A stretch of DNA of 64,000 bases, from UHGV virus genome UHGV-0171999, one strand, 5' to 3'. A program made the position numbers and the translations under genes. The stretch's first letter is position 1; each line of letters starts with the position of its first letter. Source of the DNA: a virus. The notes beneath the pieces are model-generated. The model was not told where the DNA came from, did not search any database, and saw only the letters and a program-made list of their open reading frames with translations. Of this stretch, positions 3,185-59,037 are shown piece after piece.

Positions 3185-3868
3185 ATGTTTGATTTTATTA
3201 TAGATTTTGAAACAATGGGAAGCGGTGAAAAGGCAGCTGTTATTGATTTGGCTGTTATTGCCTTTGACCCTAATCCAGAAGTAGTTGAATCATTTGATGA
3301 ATTAGTTTCACGCGGCATTAAAATCAAATTTGATTTAAAAAGTCAAAAAGGACATCGTCTTTTTACTAAAAGCACTATCGAATGGTGGAAAAATCAGTCT
3401 CCTGAAGCTCGAAAAAATATTGCACCGTCAGATGAAGATGTAAGCACTATTGATGGTATTGCGAAATTTAATGATTACATCAATGCACATAACATCGATC
3501 CTTGGAAATCTCAAGGCTGGTGTCGTGGAATGTCGTTTGATTTTCCAATTTTAGTTGATCTCATTCGCGATATTCAACGTCTTAATGGCGTTTCTGAGAA
3601 TGAGCTTGACACATTTAAGTTAGAACCATGTAAATTCTGGAATCAGCGTGATATTCGTACCAGAATTGAAGCACTTCTGCTTGTTCGCGATATGACCACG
3701 TGTCCTCTTCCAAAGGGAACTTTAGATGGATTCGTTGCACATGATTCTATTCATGACTGTGCGAAAGACATCCTGATGATGAAGTATGCTTTGCGGTATG
3801 CTATGGGTCTTGAAGATGCTCCGTCAGAGGAAGAGTGCGATCCTCTATCTCTTCCAACAAAACGATAA
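3185..3868 (+). CDS. dexA: exonuclease A (DexA), 227 aa
   Basis: Length, N-terminus MFDFIIDFET and acidic exonuclease motifs match T4 DexA; position after dda. Confidence 0.92.
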   Translation: MFDFIIDFETMGSGEKAAVIDLAVIAFDPNPEVVESFDELVSRGIKIKFDLKSQKGHRLFTKSTIEWWKNQSPEARKNIAPSDEDVSTIDGIAKFNDYINAHNIDPWKSQGWCRGMSFDFPILVDLIRDIQRLNGVSENELDTFKLEPCKFWNQRDIRTRIEALLLVRDMTTCPLPKGTLDGFVAHDSIHDCAKDILMMKYALRYAMGLEDAPSEEECDPLSLPTKR

Positions 3869-3874
3869 AAAGTT

Positions 3875-3906
3875 GTTTACTTCCTCGGTTAGTTGTGGTA
3901 TTATAA
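3875..3906 (+). promoter_or_regulatory. T4-type early promoter
   Basis: GTTTAC at 3875-3880 followed about 18 bp later by TGn TATTAT-like -10; directly after dexA stop. Confidence 0.5.
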
Positions 3907-3931
3907 CACCATAGCTACTGAGGATAATAAA

Positions 3932-4444
3932 ATGAAAATTTATCGTGTTGAATCATCGTTTAGCGCATTAAATGATGATAGTGGTATAGTGAAAATTAGG
4001 CAAGAGTTATGTGTTCAATCAACTCCTTATCGTGGATTTGATTCTATGAAAACTCGAACTTGGCTAAAATTTTGCGGTATTAATTCATCGTCATTTCATC
4101 ATCATAGCGATAATTATGAAAGCCATGAAAGTATTCCTATTCCACATGATGATAAGTTATTAGTTGAAAATGCTAATGATGCTATTAAAACTAAATGGAA
4201 TAAAGATTATTCGCAATTTGAAAATTATATTCCATTGTGGCTTATTGCATTATATCATTTTGCTTTCGCTAGTGAATATGATATGATGAGATGGTTCACC
4301 CGAGAAGAGCGTGAAGACTTAAAAGATCGTGGAATGTACATTGCGATTTATGAAGTTCCTGAAGATGAAGTTATCATTGGCGGGCACCAAGTAATGTTCC
4401 GCAAATCCCATGCTGAACTTATAGATTTTATTGAAATGAGATAA
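3932..4444 (+). CDS. hypothetical early protein, 170 aa
   Basis: ATG at 3932 preceded by GAGGA; the ORF-track start at 3893 lies inside the promoter. Confidence 0.55.
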   Translation: MKIYRVESSFSALNDDSGIVKIRQELCVQSTPYRGFDSMKTRTWLKFCGINSSSFHHHSDNYESHESIPIPHDDKLLVENANDAIKTKWNKDYSQFENYIPLWLIALYHFAFASEYDMMRWFTREEREDLKDRGMYIAIYEVPEDEVIIGGHQVMFRKSHAELIDFIEMR

Positions 4445-7122: not shown

Positions 7123-7387
7123 AATTATGAAATATATTAATCGTTCTATCGCAGCATTAGTATTAGCAGTGTCTTTAGCAGGATGTACTGATGCTGATAA
7201 TGCAACCAAAGTTTTGTCTTCAAGCGGTTTTACTAATATTGAAATCACTGGATACAATTGGTTCGGTTGCTCTGAAAATGATTTCCAACATACTGGATTT
7301 CGTGCTATTGGACCTACCGGGCAGAAAGTAGAAGGAACCGTATGTTCTGGTCTATTCTTCAAGGATTCGACTATCCGTTTTAAATAA
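7115..7387 (+). CDS. putative small lipoprotein, about 86-90 aa
   Basis: Hydrophobic signal IAALVLAVSLAGC with lipobox-like LAGC. Confidence 0.5.
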   Translation: MSEIMKYINRSIAALVLAVSLAGCTDADNATKVLSSSGFTNIEITGYNWFGCSENDFQHTGFRAIGPTGQKVEGTVCSGLFFKDSTIRFK

Positions 7388-7410
7388 AAGGCCTTCGGGC
7401 CTTTAGCTTT
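7387..7410 (+). terminator. GC hairpin with UUCG loop (AAAGGCCTTCGGGCCTTT), terminator or RNA stabiliser
   Basis: Perfect 7-bp stem with TTCG tetraloop directly after a stop codon; identical hairpin at 54450. Confidence 0.5.
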
Positions 7411-7456
7411 ATGATTACCGGAGTATAATATTCCCGAAACCAAACGAGGATAAGTG

Positions 7457-9274
7457 ATGATTAAGAATGAAATTAAAATTCTGAGCGATATTGAACATAT
7501 CAAAAAGCGTAGCGGCATGTATATTGGCTCTTCTGCTAATGAAATGCATGAGCGCTTTCTGTTTGGTAAATGGGAAAGTGTTCAGTATGTACCTGGTCTT
7601 GTTAAGCTTATTGATGAAATTATCGATAACTCAGTAGATGAAGGTATTCGTACTAAGTTTAAATTCGCAAATAAAATTAATGTTACTATTAAAAACAATC
7701 AAGTAACAGTTGAAGATAACGGTCGCGGTATTCCACAAGCGATGGTTAAAACACCTACTGGTGAAGAAATTCCTGGTCCTGTTGCTGCCTGGACTATTCC
7801 AAAAGCAGGCGGTAACTTTGGTGATGACAAAGAACGCGTCACTGGCGGTATGAATGGTGTTGGTTCTAGTTTGACAAATATTTTTTCTGTGATGTTTGTC
7901 GGTGAAACTGGCGATGGTCAAAATAATATTGTAGTTCGTTGTTCAAATGGCATGGAAAATAAATCCTGGGAAGATATTCCTGGAAAATGGAAAGGAACCC
8001 GTGTTACTTTCATTCCCGATTTTATGTCATTTGAAACTAATGAGCTGTCCCAAGTTTATCTTGACATTACACTAGATCGTCTCCAGACACTTGCTGTTGT
8101 TTATCCTGATATTCAATTTACCTTTAATGGTAAAAAGGTTCAGGGCAATTTTAAGAAATATGCACGCCAATATGATGAACATGCTATTGTTCAAGAACAA
8201 GAAAATTGTTCTATTGCAGTTGGTCGTTCACCGGATGGTTTTCGTCAATTAACTTATGTGAATAACATTCACACTAAGAATGGTGGCCATCACATTGACT
8301 GTGTTATGGATGATATTTGTGAAGACCTTATTCCACAAATCAAACGTAAGTTCAAAATTGATGTAACTAAAGCACGTGTTAAAGAATGTTTGACTATCGT
8401 CATGTTTGTTCGTGATATGAAAAACATGCGATTTGATTCTCAAACTAAAGAACGACTTACTTCTCCATTTGGTGAAATCCGTAGTCATATTCAGCTTGAT
8501 GCTAAAAAGATTTCACGTGCTATTCTAAATAATGAAGCTATTTTGATGCCAATTATTGAAGCTGCCTTGGCTCGTAAATTGGCAGCAGAAAAAGCAGCTG
8601 AAACCAAAGCAGCTAAAAAGGCTTCTAAAGCTAAGGTTCATAAACATATTAAAGCGAATCTTTGCGGTAAAGATGCTGACACTACTCTTTTCTTGACTGA
8701 GGGTGATTCTGCTATCGGATATCTTATTGATGTTCGTGATAAAGAACTTCATGGTGGTTATCCATTGCGTGGTAAAGTTCTTAACAGTTGGGGTATGTCT
8801 TATGCTGATATGCTTAAAAACAAAGAACTGTTTGATATTTGCGCAATCACTGGATTAGTTCTTGGTGAAAAGGCTGAAAACTTGAATTATCATAATATTG
8901 CTATTATGACTGATGCTGACCACGATGGTCTAGGAAGCATTTATCCTTCTCTGCTCGGATTTTTCAGTAATTGGCCAGAACTGTTTGAACAAGGAAGAAT
9001 TCGCTTTGTCAAAACTCCTGTAATCATCGCTCAGGTCGGTAAAAAACAAGAATGGTTTTATACAGTCGCTGAATATGAGAGTGCCAAAGATGCTCTACCT
9101 AAACATAGCATCCGTTATATTAAGGGACTTGGCTCTTTGGAAAAATCTGAATATCGTGAGATGATTCAAAATCCAGTATATGATGTTGTTAAACTTCCTG
9201 AGAATTGGAAAGAGCTTTTTGAAATGCTCATGGGAGATAATGCTGACCTTCGTAAAGAATGGATGAGTCAGTAG
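7457..9274 (+). CDS. 39: DNA topoisomerase II large subunit (GyrB-like ATPase plus TOPRIM), single fused gene 39, 605 aa
   Basis: GHKL N-box IDEIIDNSVDEG, GMNGVGSS, TOPRIM TEGDSA; one continuous ORF rather than a 39/60 split. Confidence 0.93.
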   Translation: MIKNEIKILSDIEHIKKRSGMYIGSSANEMHERFLFGKWESVQYVPGLVKLIDEIIDNSVDEGIRTKFKFANKINVTIKNNQVTVEDNGRGIPQAMVKTPTGEEIPGPVAAWTIPKAGGNFGDDKERVTGGMNGVGSSLTNIFSVMFVGETGDGQNNIVVRCSNGMENKSWEDIPGKWKGTRVTFIPDFMSFETNELSQVYLDITLDRLQTLAVVYPDIQFTFNGKKVQGNFKKYARQYDEHAIVQEQENCSIAVGRSPDGFRQLTYVNNIHTKNGGHHIDCVMDDICEDLIPQIKRKFKIDVTKARVKECLTIVMFVRDMKNMRFDSQTKERLTSPFGEIRSHIQLDAKKISRAILNNEAILMPIIEAALARKLAAEKAAETKAAKKASKAKVHKHIKANLCGKDADTTLFLTEGDSAIGYLIDVRDKELHGGYPLRGKVLNSWGMSYADMLKNKELFDICAITGLVLGEKAENLNYHNIAIMTDADHDGLGSIYPSLLGFFSNWPELFEQGRIRFVKTPVIIAQVGKKQEWFYTVAEYESAKDALPKHSIRYIKGLGSLEKSEYREMIQNPVYDVVKLPENWKELFEMLMGDNADLRKEWMSQ

Positions 9275-12893: not shown

Positions 12894-12897
12894 AGTA

Positions 12898-12917
12898 AAG
12901 GGCTTCGGCCCTTTTGT
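12898..12917 (+). terminator. rho-independent terminator (GGGCTTCGGCCC hairpin plus T-tract)
   Basis: AAGGGCTTCGGCCCTTTTGTTTT directly after the stop codon. Confidence 0.6.
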
Positions 12918-12979
12918 TTTAAGGGAAACTATGATTTATTATATTAACATCAGTGATTCCGACGTAAAAGGAAAGTTTA

Positions 12980-34344: not shown

Positions 34345-34725
34345 ATGTATACTGGTCGAAAGTATGAACTTGTTCCAAGACTTATTGATACATTTATTAA
34401 TTATAGCCCACGTTCTAATTCATCAATAGTTAAAGCTATTCGAGATAATGGCGGATGGTTTGAAGTTAAAGAAGTTTCCGTCGCTAATGGATATAAAGCA
34501 GTAAAACATATTGAATGTGCTAATGGAAAGCATTTTTACCTCAAAGATAGACTTTTAGAAATTTGCGAAGATGAATTTCATTGTTTCCGCGAGTATAAAG
34601 AACCGACTTCTGAAGAAGATGAAGTCGAAGACAAGGTTTCTGGCGTAACAAAAATTCACTGCATTGTTGACGAAAACAATGTAGATGAAATCATTGAACT
34701 TTTGCGAAAAACTTTCAAAAAGTAG
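34345..34725 (+). CDS. hypothetical protein, 126 aa
   Basis: ATG after GAGGAAAACGCA. Confidence 0.5.
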   Translation: MYTGRKYELVPRLIDTFINYSPRSNSSIVKAIRDNGGWFEVKEVSVANGYKAVKHIECANGKHFYLKDRLLEICEDEFHCFREYKEPTSEEDEVEDKVSGVTKIHCIVDENNVDEIIELLRKTFKK

Positions 34726-41797: not shown

Positions 41798-43385
<1,588 letters not shown>

Positions 43386-43388
43386 GCT

Positions 43389-43418
43389 GTTTACAAGTCC
43401 CTCGTGTTGTGTTATAGT
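43389..43418 (+). promoter_or_regulatory. T4-type early promoter upstream of alc
   Basis: GTTTAC 43389-43394, 18-bp spacer, TATAGT 43413-43418. Confidence 0.6.
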
Positions 43419-43442
43419 AGACTTACTGACATAACATGAGGA
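43389..43442 (+). repeat. 54-bp promoter/leader cassette, copy A
   Basis: 53 of 54 nt identical to 58658-58711, including -35, spacer, -10, leader hairpin and SD. Confidence 0.9.
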
Positions 43443-43449
43443 CTTTATG

Positions 43450-43953
43450 ATGGATTTACAGCTTATTACTACTGAGATGGTCGTTGAAGCATACGGTGAT
43501 ACTACAGATGGGATTTCTGTATTTAAAGGAAATCGTCGAGTTGGATATATCACCGATCTTAAGAAAGATTTAGCTAAGCAAGTCAAGCGGAAAACGACCA
43601 TTAAAGAATATCGAAATCGTCGTCTTGAGCAAGCCCGTGATATGCTTCCTGATGCGGTTGAAGAGATGAAAGTCTTTTTAGAAAATCAACTCGCTAAGTA
43701 TGAGTGCGAAGTATTCATTAATCAGACTCAACCTAATGTTCATATCAATAACTGTAAATGCTATATCATCGTTAATCCTTTGACGGGAAAACATCGTCTT
43801 GGAATTAGTAATCCAAATCGTAGCGCGTCGGATATAGCAGAAGATGTTGAGGCATGCTTTAAAATTTCTAAATCTCCGGCTGAACATCATATTTTAATTA
43901 ACGGTCTTTCTCAAGACGATATTATAGAGGTTATTAAAACTTTATGCAATTAA
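43450..43953 (+). CDS. alc: Alc (blocks host transcription on cytosine DNA), 167 aa
   Basis: Second ATG at 43450 has better SD spacing and gives the T4 Alc length of 167 aa; position after rnlA. Confidence 0.85.
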   Translation: MDLQLITTEMVVEAYGDTTDGISVFKGNRRVGYITDLKKDLAKQVKRKTTIKEYRNRRLEQARDMLPDAVEEMKVFLENQLAKYECEVFINQTQPNVHINNCKCYIIVNPLTGKHRLGISNPNRSASDIAEDVEACFKISKSPAEHHILINGLSQDDIIEVIKTLCN

Positions 43954-54266: not shown

Positions 54267-54451
54267 AAGCTTACTTAGAAACAATTGTCGTGGCTCAAAA
54301 AGAAGGTGGAGATGTTTCTACTTCTGTATCGCAAATCGTTCTCGAATTTGTAGATGCATATGCTTATAATAAATTCACAGAAACATTTGATGCCTATGAA
54401 AAAGGACCAAAGTTTGAAATATACCGCACTCTCTTACCAATAGATTATTAA
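54263..54451 (+). CDS. hypothetical acidic protein, 62 aa
   Basis: ATGA overlap with ligase stop; followed by a hairpin. Confidence 0.45.
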   Translation: MKAYLETIVVAQKEGGDVSTSVSQIVLEFVDAYAYNKFTETFDAYEKGPKFEIYRTLLPIDY

Positions 54452-54467
54452 AGGCCTTCGGGCCTTT
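54450..54467 (+). terminator. GC hairpin with UUCG loop (AAAGGCCTTCGGGCCTTT)
   Basis: Identical hairpin sequence to 7387-7404; sits between early block and the late promoter. Confidence 0.5.
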
Positions 54468-54472
54468 AATTT

Positions 54473-54480
54473 TATAAATA
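54473..54480 (+). promoter_or_regulatory. T4 late promoter TATAAATA upstream of the Alt-family genes
   Basis: TATAAATA 24 nt upstream of the first Alt-like start codon. Confidence 0.6.
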
Positions 54481-54503
54481 GAATAAACACTAGAGAGGAT
54501 ATG

Positions 54504-56597
54504 ATGGAACTCATTACAGAATTATTTGACGAAGATACTACTCTTCCGATTACAAACTTAAATCCAAAGAAGAAAATACCGCAAATTTTTTCAGTTCATG
54601 TTGATGACGCAATTGAACAACCAGGCTTTCGTTTATGTACCTATACATCTGGAGGTGATACTAATCGCGATTTAAAGATGGGCGATAAAATGATGCATAT
54701 TGTTCCTTTTACATTAACTGCTAAAGGCTCAATTGCTAAATTAAAAGGTCTCGGTCCAAGCCCAATTAATTACATCAATTCAGTTTTTACTGTTGCAATG
54801 CAAACAATGCGTCAATATAAAATTGATGCCTGTATGCTTCGTATTCTTAAGTCTAAAACTGCTGGCCAAGCTCGTCAAATTCAAGTTATTGCTGATAGAC
54901 TTATCCGTAGTCGTTCAGGCGGCAGATACGTCCTTCTTAAGGAACTCTGGGACTATGATAAAAAGTATGCATATATTCTTATACATCGCAAAAATGTATC
55001 ACTAGAAGACATTCCAGGAGTTCCAGAAATTAGTACCGAGCTCTTTACTAAAGTTGAATCGAAAGTCGGTGATGTTTATATCAATAAAGATACCGGAGCT
55101 CAAGTAACTAAAAATGAGGCAATTGCAGCATCTATTGCGCAAGAAAATGATAAACGTTCTGACCAAGCTGTAATCGTTAAAGTTAAAATTTCCCGTAGAG
55201 CAATTGCACAAAGTCAATCGTTAGAATCTTCTAGATTTGAAAGTGAATTATTCCAGAAGTATGAATCTACCGCAGCTAATTTCAATAAACCTGCTACCGC
55301 TCCTTTAATTCCCGAAGCAGAAGAAATGAAGCTTGGAATTAATTCATTAGCTTCTAAAACTAAGGCAGCAAAAATCATTGCCGAAGGAACTGCAGATGAA
55401 CTTCACTATGATTATAAATTCTTTTCAAAAAGTGAGGTTAATGAAGTTTCTGAAAAAATTAAAGATGTAATTCTTAATGCGATTAAAAATGAACCGACTA
55501 CTTCAATAAAATGTTTAGAGAAATACGCAGCAGCTGTTAATCAACTCTTTGAAGAATATAAAGATAATTGGCTTGATAAACATAATAAAACACGTAAAGG
55601 ACAGCCAGATGAAGTCTGGGAAGAAATAACTAAAAATTCCTGGAACGCAGCAAAAACTAAATTCATCAAAAGAATGATTTACAGCTTTTCTGGAATTGGT
55701 GCAGGTCCAATGATTGATATTACTATTGCCCGCGATGGTTCTAAATATACTCCATCACAAAAGCGCGGCATTAGAGAGTATTGTGGTTCAGGATATACTG
55801 ACATCAATAATCTTCTTTTAGGACGCTACAATCCAGAACGATATGATGTAATGAGTGAAAAAGAAATTGAATCTGCTATAAATAACTTAGATTCAGCTTT
55901 TGAAAATGGTGACCGTATACCAGAAGGCATTACAGTTTATCGTGCTCAAAGCATGACTGCTCCTATATACGAAGCACTAGTTAAAAATAAAGTGTTCTAT
56001 TTCAGAAATTTTGTATCTACTTCTTTAACTCCTATCATTTTTGGACGTTTTGGAATTACACATGCTGGTATTGGTCTTTTAGAACCAGAAGCTCGTAATG
56101 AATTAACAGTTGATAAAAATGAAGAAGGAATAACTATTAATCCAAGCGAAATAAGAGCGTATAAAGAAAATCCTGAATACGTTAAAGTTCAAATAGGATG
56201 GGCAATTGATGGAGCTCATAAAGTTAATGTTGTATATCCAGGAAGTCTCGGAATAGCAACAGAAGCTGAAGTAATTCTACCACGCGGATTGATGGTCAAA
56301 GTCAATAAAATAACTGATGCTTCTAATAATGATGGAACAACATCTAATAATACAAAACTCATTCAAGCTGAAGTTATGACTACGGAAGAACTCACCGAAT
56401 CAGTCATTTATGACGGTGACCGTCTAATGGAAACTGGTGAAGTAGTTGCAATGACAGGTGATATTGAAATAGAAGACAGAGTTGACTTTGCATCATTTGT
56501 TTCATCAAATGTTAAACAAAAAGTAGAATCATCTCTTGGAATTATTGCATCTTGCATAGATATTACAAACATTCCTTACAAGTTCGTTCAAGGATAA
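54504..56597 (+). CDS. Alt-family ADP-ribosyltransferase paralog, 697 aa
   Basis: N-terminal ~230 aa highly similar to the downstream copy; C-terminal ART-like motifs (YRAQ, FVSTSL, EAEVILPRG). Confidence 0.8.
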   Translation: MELITELFDEDTTLPITNLNPKKKIPQIFSVHVDDAIEQPGFRLCTYTSGGDTNRDLKMGDKMMHIVPFTLTAKGSIAKLKGLGPSPINYINSVFTVAMQTMRQYKIDACMLRILKSKTAGQARQIQVIADRLIRSRSGGRYVLLKELWDYDKKYAYILIHRKNVSLEDIPGVPEISTELFTKVESKVGDVYINKDTGAQVTKNEAIAASIAQENDKRSDQAVIVKVKISRRAIAQSQSLESSRFESELFQKYESTAANFNKPATAPLIPEAEEMKLGINSLASKTKAAKIIAEGTADELHYDYKFFSKSEVNEVSEKIKDVILNAIKNEPTTSIKCLEKYAAAVNQLFEEYKDNWLDKHNKTRKGQPDEVWEEITKNSWNAAKTKFIKRMIYSFSGIGAGPMIDITIARDGSKYTPSQKRGIREYCGSGYTDINNLLLGRYNPERYDVMSEKEIESAINNLDSAFENGDRIPEGITVYRAQSMTAPIYEALVKNKVFYFRNFVSTSLTPIIFGRFGITHAGIGLLEPEARNELTVDKNEEGITINPSEIRAYKENPEYVKVQIGWAIDGAHKVNVVYPGSLGIATEAEVILPRGLMVKVNKITDASNNDGTTSNNTKLIQAEVMTTEELTESVIYDGDRLMETGEVVAMTGDIEIEDRVDFASFVSSNVKQKVESSLGIIASCIDITNIPYKFVQG

Positions 56598-56600
56598 ATC

Positions 56601-58658
56601 ATGGAACTTATTACAGAATTATTTGACGGCGCTTCGGCGCCGGTTGTTAACTTAAATCCGAAGCATAAAATACCTCAAATTTTTGCTATTCAAGCAGGCG
56701 AAGAAAGTGTGCTTCCTGGATTTAGATTTTGTACATACACCTCCGGTGGTGATACAAATAAAAACGTTAAACCAGGCGATAAAATGATGCATATCGTAAT
56801 GATAGGTGTCAACGAAAAATTATCATTAGTCAAACTTAAAAACTTGGGTGGAAATCCAATTGGTGTCATTAATGCGGTTTTTGATACTGCTCTTCAAACA
56901 ATGAAACAGTATAAAATTGACGCATGCCTATTCCGCGTACTAAAAAGTAAAACAAATGGCGCAGCTCGTCAAATGCAAGTTATTGCTGACCGTTTAGTAC
57001 GTACTAAAGGAGCAGGTCGATATGTTCTTTTAAAGGAAATCTGGGACTATGATAAAAAGTATGCATATATTATGGTTTACCGTAAAAATGCTAATTTAGA
57101 AGACATTCCAGGTGTACCTCCTATTTCAACAGAGCTATTCACAAAAGTTGAATCAAAGGTCGGTGATGTTTATGTAGACGTTAAAACAGGTAATGCTGTT
57201 CCTAAAGCTGTCGCAGTTGCTGCTTCTATTGCTTTGGAAAATGATAAACGTACTGATCAAGCGGTTATTCAGAAAACTAAAATCAGTCGTCGATTAGCAG
57301 CACAAGCTCAATATTCTACTGTCGATGCTTCGCTCCAGGGTGATAGCTTCGCTGCCAAGAAATATCAAGAGTTTGAATCTAAAGTTCCGGTATATAAAGC
57401 AGAAGGACCAATGAACTCTGGTGTTATTCAGATTGGTTCCAACTTCAGCAAAGGAGCTATCGGTGGTATGAGAAGTGCTTCTCGTTTTAAATCTAACGAT
57501 TATGAACTAGAAAGCTTCCGAAATCATATTGCATTGGCCCATGCGCGTTTACGTGACCCATCTATCAAGCTGCAGAGCGATATAACATATCAAGGTTCTC
57601 AAGAATATTTAAAGAATAAAGAATTCTTTGATTATAAAACTGATAAAATTTTAAGCGATCTTGCTGACATTAATATTTCTAATAGCTTTGATGTTATTAA
57701 GAAAATTGTCAATGATTTAGTTAAAGGTTCTAAAGCCACGCCAGATGAAAAGGTAGCTATTGTTCAATTTGTCATGAATGGCATTTATAAATTGATTAAT
57801 GAGTCTGCTTCTCAAGCGTATGAATATGCAAGTACTGAAGTACCCCCAAAAGGATTAACTCAGGCTGAGTCCGATGTAATTGAAGATTATTGTGCAGATT
57901 CATATGTTGAAATGAACTCGTTCCTTTTGGGTAAACCAGATTCTACCCGTGAAGAATACATGGAACGAGCTATTAAACACATCGAGACAATGGATTCTGC
58001 CTTTGCCAAAGGATCAGTTCTTCCTCCAGGAACTACACTTTACCGTGGGCAAGAAGTTACCTTTAAAACTTTACGTCATAATATTGAAAATAAAATGTTC
58101 TATTTCAAGAACTTCGTATCCACATCGCTTAAACCAAATATCTTCGGTGAGTATGGTAAAAACTATATGGCTCTAGATGATTCCGGAACAGTATTTTCTG
58201 GTGAAGGAGAAGGTTCAGTTGATGCTGAAGATTTAATGCATATGGGTAGTCATTCTGCATATGCTAATGAAGATGCTGAAACTAGCGTAGGTATGGTAAT
58301 AAAAGGAGCTGAGCGAATTAAAGTTATCGTTCCAGGTCATTTATCAGGATTTCCATCAGAAGCTGAAGTTATTTTACCACGTGGAATTTTGCTGAAGATT
58401 AATAAAGTGAGCACGTATATGATGAAAGAAACTGCTTATAACAAGTATTTAATCGAAGGCACAATCGTTCCTCCTTCTGAACAATTAGAAGAATCGGTAT
58501 ATGATGGTGATCATCTAATGGAAACTGGTGAAGTTCGTCCAATGGCTGGATTTAATCAATTCCTTGTAGAAGAATCAAAAGAAGAGGAAAACGAAGTTTC
58601 TCAAATCTTGGCTTCTTTGGTTAACATCAACGGAATGTCTAAAAAGTTCAAGATGTAG
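56601..58658 (+). CDS. alt: Alt ADP-ribosyltransferase (virion-packaged), 685 aa
   Basis: Alt-family N-terminus MELITELFD; ART motifs LYRGQ, FVSTSL, EAEVILPRG; adjacent to gene 54 as in T4. Confidence 0.8.
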   Translation: MELITELFDGASAPVVNLNPKHKIPQIFAIQAGEESVLPGFRFCTYTSGGDTNKNVKPGDKMMHIVMIGVNEKLSLVKLKNLGGNPIGVINAVFDTALQTMKQYKIDACLFRVLKSKTNGAARQMQVIADRLVRTKGAGRYVLLKEIWDYDKKYAYIMVYRKNANLEDIPGVPPISTELFTKVESKVGDVYVDVKTGNAVPKAVAVAASIALENDKRTDQAVIQKTKISRRLAAQAQYSTVDASLQGDSFAAKKYQEFESKVPVYKAEGPMNSGVIQIGSNFSKGAIGGMRSASRFKSNDYELESFRNHIALAHARLRDPSIKLQSDITYQGSQEYLKNKEFFDYKTDKILSDLADINISNSFDVIKKIVNDLVKGSKATPDEKVAIVQFVMNGIYKLINESASQAYEYASTEVPPKGLTQAESDVIEDYCADSYVEMNSFLLGKPDSTREEYMERAIKHIETMDSAFAKGSVLPPGTTLYRGQEVTFKTLRHNIENKMFYFKNFVSTSLKPNIFGEYGKNYMALDDSGTVFSGEGEGSVDAEDLMHMGSHSAYANEDAETSVGMVIKGAERIKVIVPGHLSGFPSEAEVILPRGILLKINKVSTYMMKETAYNKYLIEGTIVPPSEQLEESVYDGDHLMETGEVRPMAGFNQFLVEESKEEENEVSQILASLVNINGMSKKFKM

Positions 58659-58687
58659 TTTACAAGTCTCTCGTGTTGTGTTATAGT
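58658..58687 (+). promoter_or_regulatory. T4-type early promoter
   Basis: GTTTAC 58658-58663 overlapping alt stop, 18-bp spacer, TATAGT 58682-58687. Confidence 0.6.
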
Positions 58688-58711
58688 AGACTTACTGACA
58701 TAACATGAGGA
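58658..58711 (+). repeat. 54-bp promoter/leader cassette, copy B
   Basis: 53 of 54 nt identical to 43389-43442. Confidence 0.9.
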
Positions 58712-58718
58712 ACACAAA

Positions 58719-59009
58719 ATGAAATCTTCTTTGCGCTTTTTAGGTCAAGAACTTGTAGTTGAAGGCGTTATTCCTGTTGATAACGCTTTTAATGAAGCAG
58801 TTTATGATGAATTCATTAAAATTTTCGGAACCGATAAAAAGTTTGGAATTTTTCCTTCTGAAAATTTTTCAAAGCCAGAACAGACTGAAAGTATTTTCCA
58901 AGGTGTAGTAACAGGTAAATTTGAGTCAGAAGCTCCGGTAAAAATTGAAGTTTATATTGAAGACAGTTTAGTTGCTTCAGTTGCTGCTTTTATTTCATTC
59001 CGTAAATAA
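58719..59009 (+). CDS. hypothetical protein, 96 aa
   Basis: ATG after GAGGAACACAAA; convergent with gene 54. Confidence 0.5.
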   Translation: MKSSLRFLGQELVVEGVIPVDNAFNEAVYDEFIKIFGTDKKFGIFPSENFSKPEQTESIFQGVVTGKFESEAPVKIEVYIEDSLVASVAAFISFRK

Positions 59010-59015
59010 AAATAT

Positions 59016-59033
59016 GGGGACCTTTCGGTCCCC
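59016..59033. terminator. bidirectional GC hairpin between convergent genes
   Basis: GGGGACCTTTCGGTCCCC between the 96-aa ORF (+) and gene 54 (-). Confidence 0.55.
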
Positions 59034-59037
59034 ATTG

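Follow-up and report, generated by a model that had tools for sequence, protein, structure and literature searches.

The viral genome UHGV-0171999 was analysed as one stretch of 64,000 nucleotides, referred to below as the window. It derives from a Tequatrovirus (T4-like) and is 97–98 per cent identical to many T4-like coliphages, its plus strand corresponding to the minus (early) strand of T4. Our subject is a 54-base promoter and leader cassette that occurs twice in the window, once upstream of alc, the inhibitor of host transcription, and once upstream of alt.-3. A first reading of this DNA, made without database searches and called here the sequence-only reading, had placed the copies upstream of alc and of an open reading frame (ORF) of 96 amino acids after alt. 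Both placements are correct, and the second gene is the homologue of T4 alt.-3. For the alc ORF, the PHROG match is to 'inhibitor of host transcription', with an E-value of 3e-81.

Copy 1 (alc) carries the 54-mer without mismatch and copy 2 (alt.-3) agrees with it at 53 of 54 positions, so the near-identity described in the sequence-only reading holds at its exact coordinates. The sole difference falls at 58669 (cassette position 12), which is T in copy 2 where copy 1 has C. The copies are direct repeats on the plus strand, offset by 15,269 bases, and comparing the window with itself, the check proposed at the time, recovers the same pair of copies. No such match arose in 100 shuffles of the window sequence. 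The limits of the identity are sharp, from the G of GTTTAC to the A of GAGGA, and the flanks of the two copies are unrelated. We also lined up the twelve plus-strand early promoter cassettes of the window from the -35 and counted identities for every pair. The remaining sixty-five pairs are alike at 25.1±5.0 of 54 positions (maximum 38), against 53 for the alc/alt.-3 pair, and the suggestion that the match might be no better than the background among early promoters fails.

Promoter and RNA structure of the cassettes

Both copies are sigma-70-type early promoters with the form TTTACA, 17 bases, TGnTATAGT, matching at 10 of 12 hexamer positions. They are the best-scoring plus-strand sites between 41 and 60 kb, in keeping with their earlier description as promoter/leader cassettes, and their layout is the same as in the ten other early promoters of the window. 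Directly upstream of the -35, where an A/T-rich UP-like region would lie, the picture is mixed: copy 1 has an A/T run about 20–45 bases away, within the rnlA coding sequence, and in copy 2 the A/T-rich sequence is limited to AAAAAG, roughly -20 to -15 relative to the -35.

RNA that spans a whole cassette is predicted to fold into a long hairpin (Table 1). In cassette coordinates, positions 14–25 pair with 40–51, an inner helix of four pairs joins 28–31 to 36–39, and copy 1 gains six extra outer pairs. The predicted energy is -24.4 kcal/mol for copy 1 (z -3.84), where the hairpin persists in a context of 131 nt, and -20.5 kcal/mol for copy 2 (z -3.30). The sequence-only reading had remarked on an imperfect inverted repeat that could pair across the Shine-Dalgarno; the repeat is there and is longer than claimed, at 12–14 pairs plus the four-pair inner helix. 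What that reading overlooked is that the promoter spacer, which is not transcribed from the cassette's own start, holds the 5' arm, and it is this that gives the repeat a plausible function. The transcription start, inferred from the position of the -10 to lie about seven bases past it, falls in the hairpin loop, beyond the 5' arm. RNA that begins in the predicted start region is nearly unstructured, at -3.2 kcal/mol from 43422 (z -0.6) and -2.2 kcal/mol from 58691 (z +0.6). For alc, the Shine-Dalgarno has a computed probability of being unpaired of 0.00 in read-through RNA versus 0.44 in the cassette's own transcript; for alt.-3 the values are 0.09 versus 0.40.

Table 1. Features of the window discussed in the text
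Feature	Coordinates	Strand	Details
Copy 1 promoter/leader (alc)	43389–43442	+	-35 GTTTAC 43389–43394; TG 43410–43411; -10 TATAGT 43413–43418; predicted start near 43425; Shine-Dalgarno GAGGA 43438–43442
Copy 1 hairpin	43395–43445	+	5' arm 43395–43413 (spacer and first -10 base); 3' arm 43428–43445 (leader and Shine-Dalgarno)
Copy 1 inner helix	43416–43419 with 43424–43427	+	
Copy 2 promoter/leader (alt.-3)	58658–58711	+	-35 58658–58663; -10 58682–58687; predicted start near 58694; Shine-Dalgarno 58707–58711
Copy 2 hairpin	58666–58713	+	5' arm 58666–58682; inner helix 58685–58688 with 58693–58696; 3' arm 58697–58713
Analogous early promoter, spacer pairing to Shine-Dalgarno	3875–3931	+	precedes ORF 3932–4441
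rnlA (RNA ligase 1)	42225–43385	+	gene upstream of copy 1; stop at 43385
alc (inhibitor of host transcription)	43447–43953	+	gene downstream of copy 1
Second alt paralog, 'alt.-2' (ADP-ribosyltransferase)	56601–58658	+	last base of stop codon is first base of copy 2
alt.-3 homologue, 96 aa	58719–59009	+	gene downstream of copy 2
Terminator-like hairpin, bidirectional	59014–59035	.	ends the alt.-3 unit; between alt.-3 and convergent gene 54

A search of Rfam 15 gave no family at the gathering score, the matches being chance-level ones to miRNA precursors (about 19 bits, compared with thresholds of 95–200). As an intrinsic terminator the element was rejected, with no U tract and no scan site at 43389–43460 or 58658–58720 (the tails are ACUUUAUGAUG and ACACAAAAUG). 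It was likewise rejected as a RegB target, the Tequatrovirus Shine-Dalgarno being GAGGA without GGAG.

The terminator scan found no terminator between rnlA and alc or between alt.-2 and alt.-3, and read-through RNA is therefore expected across both cassettes. Downstream of alc, pseT.3 and further genes lack a nearby promoter and rely on such read-through. In T4, alc and alt.-3 are both classed as early RNA and early protein; of the genes just upstream, rnlA is early RNA and late protein, alt.-1 and alt.-2 are middle RNA, and alt is late (PMC9697503). This fits with alc and alt.-3 each having an early promoter of its own. An RNA-seq paper on DksA and T4 has nothing on alc or alt.-3.

Conservation of the hairpin at alc

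The region upstream of alc was compared in thirteen Tevenvirinae-type lineages. In ten of them the spacer of an early promoter can pair with the region of the Shine-Dalgarno (Table 2), and a second Dhakavirus, IME341, has the same arrangement as VR5. The arm sequences vary between genera, yet they remain complementary within each. When spacers were paired with leaders, the mean duplex energy was -17.1 kcal/mol for cognate and -9.6 kcal/mol for non-cognate combinations, and the cognate partner ranked first in 9–10 of 11 cases.

Table 2. Hairpin arms upstream of alc in ten lineages
Lineage	5' arm	3' arm
Tequatrovirus	CCUCGUGUUGUGU	ACAUAACAUGAGG
Dhakavirus VR5	UCUCCUCAUG	CAUGAGGAGA
Karamvirus CC31	UCUCCAUUUG	CAAAUGGAGA
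Marfavirus EK29	CCUAGUUUGUU	AACAAACGAGG
HMGUkp2	CCUCGUUUGUU	AACAAACGAGG
Gelderlandvirus NP4	UCUCCGUUUAGUU	AACUAAACGGAGA
Jiaodavirus JD18	AUCCUCGUCAG	CUGAUGAGGAU
Roskildevirus Cronus	UCUCCUCAG	CUGAGGAGA
Bragavirus SdyM006	AACCUCUCAUUUU	AAAAUGAGAGGUU
Winklervirus Gravdalen	UCCUCAUUUCGUU	AACGAAAUGAGGA

RNAalifold found no structure on a plain MAFFT alignment of eleven alc upstream regions; because the arms sit at different offsets, such an alignment is unable to bring them into register. We therefore built a covariation alignment that was anchored solely on the four-base core CCUC/GAGG (or CUCC/GGAG). In this alignment 79.5 per cent of the cells pair, compared with 60.6±2.5 per cent in shuffles, and in thirteen of the sixteen pairs both partners have changed. 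Covariation scores 0.499 here; shuffled alignments give 0.178±0.034 (none of 500 reached 0.499) and slid registers 0.06–0.10. The nine pairs on the loop side are independent tests and hold most of the covariation; pair 12–27, for example, is GC in four cases, UA in four, AU in one, and CG in one.

The comparison also bears on the idea that RNA is processed at the hairpin, by RNase III for example, with read-through RNA cut ahead of alc or alt.-3 and the stability or translation of the products changed. The outer, main, and inner helices of the Tequatrovirus version add up to about twenty pairs, as such a site might have. In the other genera, however, the stem has 9–13 pairs, which is short for RNase III, and cleavage leaves unexplained why the 5' arm must lie upstream of the start site. 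We consider a processing site improbable. With covariation across about ten genera as its mark, the promoter-embedded anti-Shine-Dalgarno hairpin at alc is evidently a selected RNA structure, a conservation that the sequence-only reading had also missed.

Sequence exchange between alc and alt.-3

The 54-mer was found at 999 places in 500 phage records, or about two per Tequatrovirus genome, with T4 and T6 among them. Since it is present throughout Tequatrovirus, the second copy is as old as the genus. The recent duplication favoured in the sequence-only reading does not survive this count, and the likeness of the copies is better explained by continuing gene conversion. The modular exchange between loci that the same reading had offered as its other explanation is supported.

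Polymorphism was examined in both copies from fourteen Tequatrovirus genomes together with extra single copies, making twenty-one alc and sixteen alt.-3 copies. Scans of IMG/VR with Alc and Alt.-3 gave only five to six loci each, and a single scan of metagenomes, for which the -35 and flanking sequence served as anchors, gave five; the population sample was therefore taken from GenBank phage records. The cassettes are polymorphic, with fifteen variable sites among the fifty-four and twelve haplotypes per locus. Of the eleven sites that vary at alc, ten vary at alt.-3 as well (hypergeometric P = 4e-7), mostly with the same alleles, and no fixed difference separates the sampled alc and alt.-3 copies. 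Paralogs within a genome differ at 2.36 positions on average, compared with 3.13 for paralogs taken from different genomes (permutation P = 0.0015), and are about as close as orthologs are to one another (2.35 differences at alc, 3.47 at alt.-3). Individual variants follow the same pattern: T19C was seen in a single genome, UGKSEcP2, in both of its copies, and cassette position 33 is A in both copies of the window and T in both copies of T4. Such shared polymorphism between the loci indicates continuing gene conversion, and the pair would be a clean natural example of the concerted evolution of a 54-base regulatory element within a virus genome.

The copies could also be alike through purifying selection on each of them, for instance on a binding site for a common regulator, with no exchange at all. 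Both genes fall in the early/early class in T4, and the two leaders are alike in other genera too, as this would lead one to expect. Selection alone does not predict, however, that the same variants should appear at both loci and be associated within genomes, and the number of variable sites and haplotypes given above is also against it. The free divergence of the arms between genera, with complementarity maintained, points to RNA pairing rather than a protein operator, which we rejected as a candidate on the same ground. Selection without exchange is thus an explanation that we find hard to credit.

The sequence-only reading had further supposed that the repeats could delete or invert the 15-kb segment between them. 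Inversion is ruled out because the copies are direct repeats, between which recombination can give deletion or duplication only. Deletion would remove the essential genes 30 (DNA ligase) and 31 (co-chaperonin) and so be lethal, and a duplication of 15 kb would exceed the T4 headful. With these two outcomes lost, non-crossover outcomes alone should persist. Gene order around both copies is unchanged in all fourteen of the genomes, which were examined in detail. The length of the repeat does favour recombination, as 54 bases is close to the minimum homology for T4, which needs about 50 bp or fewer (Singer 1982, as cited in PMC2839356), and recombination between promoter cassettes yields deletions and mini-circles in RB49 and phi1. 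Yet the presence of both copies across the genus, their direct orientation, the essential genes in the interval, and the unchanged synteny largely refute a recent duplication that serves as an active substrate for rearrangement, and we regard it as very improbable.

The history of copy 2 can be approached through alt.-3 outside Tequatrovirus, where we compared its upstream region in seven lineages (RB69, VR5, CC31, EK29, Melville, VR25, and EcS1). All seven have an early promoter directly after the alt stop codon, and in each it is an ordinary one with a stem-loop inside the spacer. The spacer-to-leader duplex at alt.-3 ranges from -3.4 to -8.2 kcal/mol in these lineages versus -18 to -21 kcal/mol in Tequatrovirus. 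The RB69 alt.-3 region and the Tequatrovirus cassette have only their ends in common, GTTTACAAG and AACATGAGGAA. Because the alt.-3 promoter is ordinary elsewhere, alt.-3 would have received its copy of the alc cassette in the ancestor of Tequatrovirus. A -35 (GTTTACAAG) and a leader end (AACATGAGGA) common to both loci would have anchored a short conversion patch, by which everything between them in the alt.-3 promoter gave way to the alc sequence. A patch from alc to alt.-3 is the simplest history, and we infer from it both the direction and the mechanism of copying.

In Dhakavirus VR5, alc and alt.-3 have an identical 30-base leader (ACCTTACACAAACATGAGGAGAACATTATG) and different promoter spacers. 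This suggests that in a second genus, too, these loci have exchanged sequence, separately and in part, and with the leader shared but the promoters different, partial exchange between alc and alt.-3 has probably happened more than once. Kagamiyamavirus EcS1 has a small anti-Shine-Dalgarno hairpin (CCUCA...UGAGG) at alt.-3 that lies entirely inside the transcribed leader, and this hairpin would act on every transcript, whatever its promoter.

Other early promoters and neighbouring features

The spacer-to-leader duplex is strong at three of the twelve early promoter junctions of the window, namely alc (-21.7 kcal/mol), alt.-3 (-18.3 kcal/mol), and the promoter at 3875–3931 (-17.4 kcal/mol); at the remaining nine it lies between -2 and -11 kcal/mol. 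The third of these forms a 17-pair hairpin over the Shine-Dalgarno (-24.3 kcal/mol, z -5.4) and shares no homology with the alc cassette. Of the stretch 3860–4441, just the first 74–104 bases have a match in T4 and several other Tequatroviruses. The cassette has been kept in those phages and the downstream ORF of 170 amino acids (phrog_1106, after dexA) replaced, so the cassette at 3875 marks a gene-replacement junction.

The other early promoters of the window have a stem-loop inside the spacer (CCACAAGG..GTGG), or one across the -10 that does not reach the Shine-Dalgarno, or none. Examples of the first kind (CCACAAGGNNGTGG) are found at 9274 and 13556, and of the second at 34725, 46714, and 50090. 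Promoter-associated hairpins, present at most of these other promoters, seem to be a general feature.

The window has two full-length alt (ADP-ribosyltransferase) paralogs in tandem, at 54501–56597 and 56601–58658, with about 70 per cent DNA identity. What remains of the second in T4 are the decayed pieces alt.-1 and alt.-2. Three copies (7384–7417, 12894–12927, and 54447–54480) are present of a terminator-like hairpin (AAAGGCCTTCGGGCCTTT) that is rich in G+C and has a T-rich tail, and one of them sits just 5' of the first alt gene.

A proposed translational gate

We propose that the cassettes act as translational gates. In each of these early sigma-70 cassettes, the 17-base spacer and the start of the -10 form the complement of the leader and Shine-Dalgarno. 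Polymerase arriving from upstream, out of rnlA into alc or out of the late alt genes into alt.-3, would transcribe both arms, and in the resulting read-through RNA the arms would fold into a hairpin of 12–20 pairs that buries the ribosome-binding site. RNA from the cassette's own promoter would start inside the loop, about seven bases past the -10, and without the 5' arm its ribosome site would be free. The cassette would in this way couple translation to initiation at its own early promoter and limit synthesis to the early period, even where read-through RNA is made later. This is the best-supported reading of the cassettes and we think it probably right, with the block to the ribosome deduced from the modelled pairing. 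Judging from its conservation there over many Tevenvirinae genera, the device is native to alc.

The main alternative is that the stem-loop works mostly in transcription or RNA decay, as an attenuator, a terminator, or a stabiliser of the 3' end of the upstream RNA, and that its overlap with the Shine-Dalgarno is incidental. Such a role has been proposed for the promoter-early stem-loops (PeSLs) of T4-type phages, in which the loop often lies over the -10, and one of these cut the expression of a reporter like a strong terminator. The hairpins that cover the -10 without reaching the Shine-Dalgarno, at other promoters of the window and at alc of phage TG1, are also what one would expect of an attenuator. 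The 3' arm is followed by no run of U in copy 2 or in most genera, however, and the terminator scan is empty at both sites. Termination also has no need of a 3' arm that includes the Shine-Dalgarno or a 5' arm that carries its complement (CCUC or CUCC), and at alc both are found in 10/13 lineages. In addition, the genes after alc, from pseT.3 onward, have no nearby promoter and depend on read-through. An attenuator or related element is for these reasons unlikely, though it deserves more weight than the other alternatives considered above.

Several observations weigh against the translational gate. The register of the covariation alignment was set by the complementary four-base core, so that the four core pairs are paired by construction. 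Three lineages depart from the arrangement at alc: Mosigvirus (RB69 and PhAPEC2) has no anti-Shine-Dalgarno arm and only a stem-loop inside the spacer; Tegunavirus TG1 has a perfect 11-pair hairpin over the -10 that stops five bases short of the Shine-Dalgarno, a variant that would not obviously mask the ribosome site; and Gaprivervirus VR20 has neither early promoter nor hairpin at alc, ahead of which lies an additional ORF with an Alc-like annotation. Given these departures, a gate must be dispensable. Several early promoters bear stem-loops without contact to the Shine-Dalgarno, and a general role of promoter hairpins could be the primary one. Within Tequatrovirus, the variants T19C, G16T, and G40T each break a pair, and although six of seven stem transitions are compatible with pairing, the excess is not significant as a sign of selection on pairing within the genus. 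Last, the fourteen genomes of the polymorphism sample were partly picked for their divergence from the query and are not a random sample.

More tentatively, and with rather less confidence than we place in the gate itself, we suggest that Tevenvirinae have a class of 'self-gating' early promoters with a spacer-encoded anti-Shine-Dalgarno. This class would be portable by short-patch conversion, as from alc to alt.-3, and would have arisen independently at a third gene of the window (at 3875). With it, the promoter from which an mRNA came would decide whether that mRNA can be translated, and the synthesis of immediate-early proteins such as Alc would stop once the early promoters fall silent, even as read-through transcription goes on. 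If the gate is real, it would provide an RNA-only way to end the synthesis of immediate-early proteins such as Alc while sparing the long transcripts that are needed downstream. T4 itself carries both cassettes, and both claims, gate and exchange, are directly testable there.

Comparison with known systems

The closest described elements are the PeSL cassettes of T4-type phages (Arbiol et al. 2010, PMC2839356; Comeau et al. 2014, PMC4122927). These consist of a strong sigma-70-like early promoter, a stable stem-loop (over the -10 in one subclass), a Shine-Dalgarno, and a start codon (PMC2839356, PMC4122927), and copies in one genome can recombine to give the RB49 and phi1 products mentioned above (PMC2839356). 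The alc and alt.-3 cassettes resemble them in combining an early promoter, a stable stem-loop, a Shine-Dalgarno, and an ATG in one intergenic module, and they fit the subclass whose stem-loop overlaps the -10; the cassette at 3875 is like PeSLs in marking a junction of gene replacement. What distinguishes the alc and alt.-3 cassettes is a stem built from the Shine-Dalgarno itself, as 3' arm, and the promoter spacer, as 5' arm. In the PeSL papers the stem-loop is put forward as a terminator, and neither translation nor ribosomes come up (PMC2839356, PMC4122927); in the PeSLs reported for PST/T4, moreover, the stem precedes the promoter directly. PeSL copies typically flank variable ORFs in hyperplastic regions, at indel or replacement junctions. 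The alc/alt.-3 pair stands apart in being 15.3 kb apart, homogenised, and free of any association with indels, with synteny conserved in the fourteen genomes. If the gate is true, a subset of PeSL stem-loops, so far read as terminators and recombination sites, would have a translational role.

The logic proposed for alc and alt.-3 is the same as that of fold-back inhibition in IS10/Tn10, which Davis, Simons, and Kleckner reportedly described in 1985 as 'protection from external promoters'. In IS10, RNA that enters from outside includes a segment from ahead of the element's own start site, this segment pairs with the ribosome-binding site, and only RNA from the element's own promoter is translated. 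The IS10 case concerns the transposase gene of a mobile element, with no homology to the alc cassette and no second copy that is kept alike by conversion; the 1985 paper is cited in PMC13181058.

Within T4, hairpins with a nested promoter sequester the Shine-Dalgarno of e, soc, 49, and I-TevI, and the shorter RNA from the inner promoter, which lacks the 5' arm, is the one that is translated (PMC3014915). The same review of T4 does not mention alc or alt.-3. The two cassettes studied here share the main elements of that design: the Shine-Dalgarno is paired in the long RNA, according to the computed folds, the 5' arm lies upstream of the predicted start, and at alc the covariation shows that the structure has been maintained. 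The difference is one of timing. In those four T4 genes the nested promoter is of the late (or middle) class and delays expression, whereas at alc and alt.-3 the inner promoter is an early sigma-70 promoter and the read-through at alt.-3 would be late, an arrangement that would confine expression to the early period. If the gate is true, the logic of the lysozyme gene e, where the nested promoter is late, would here be reversed.

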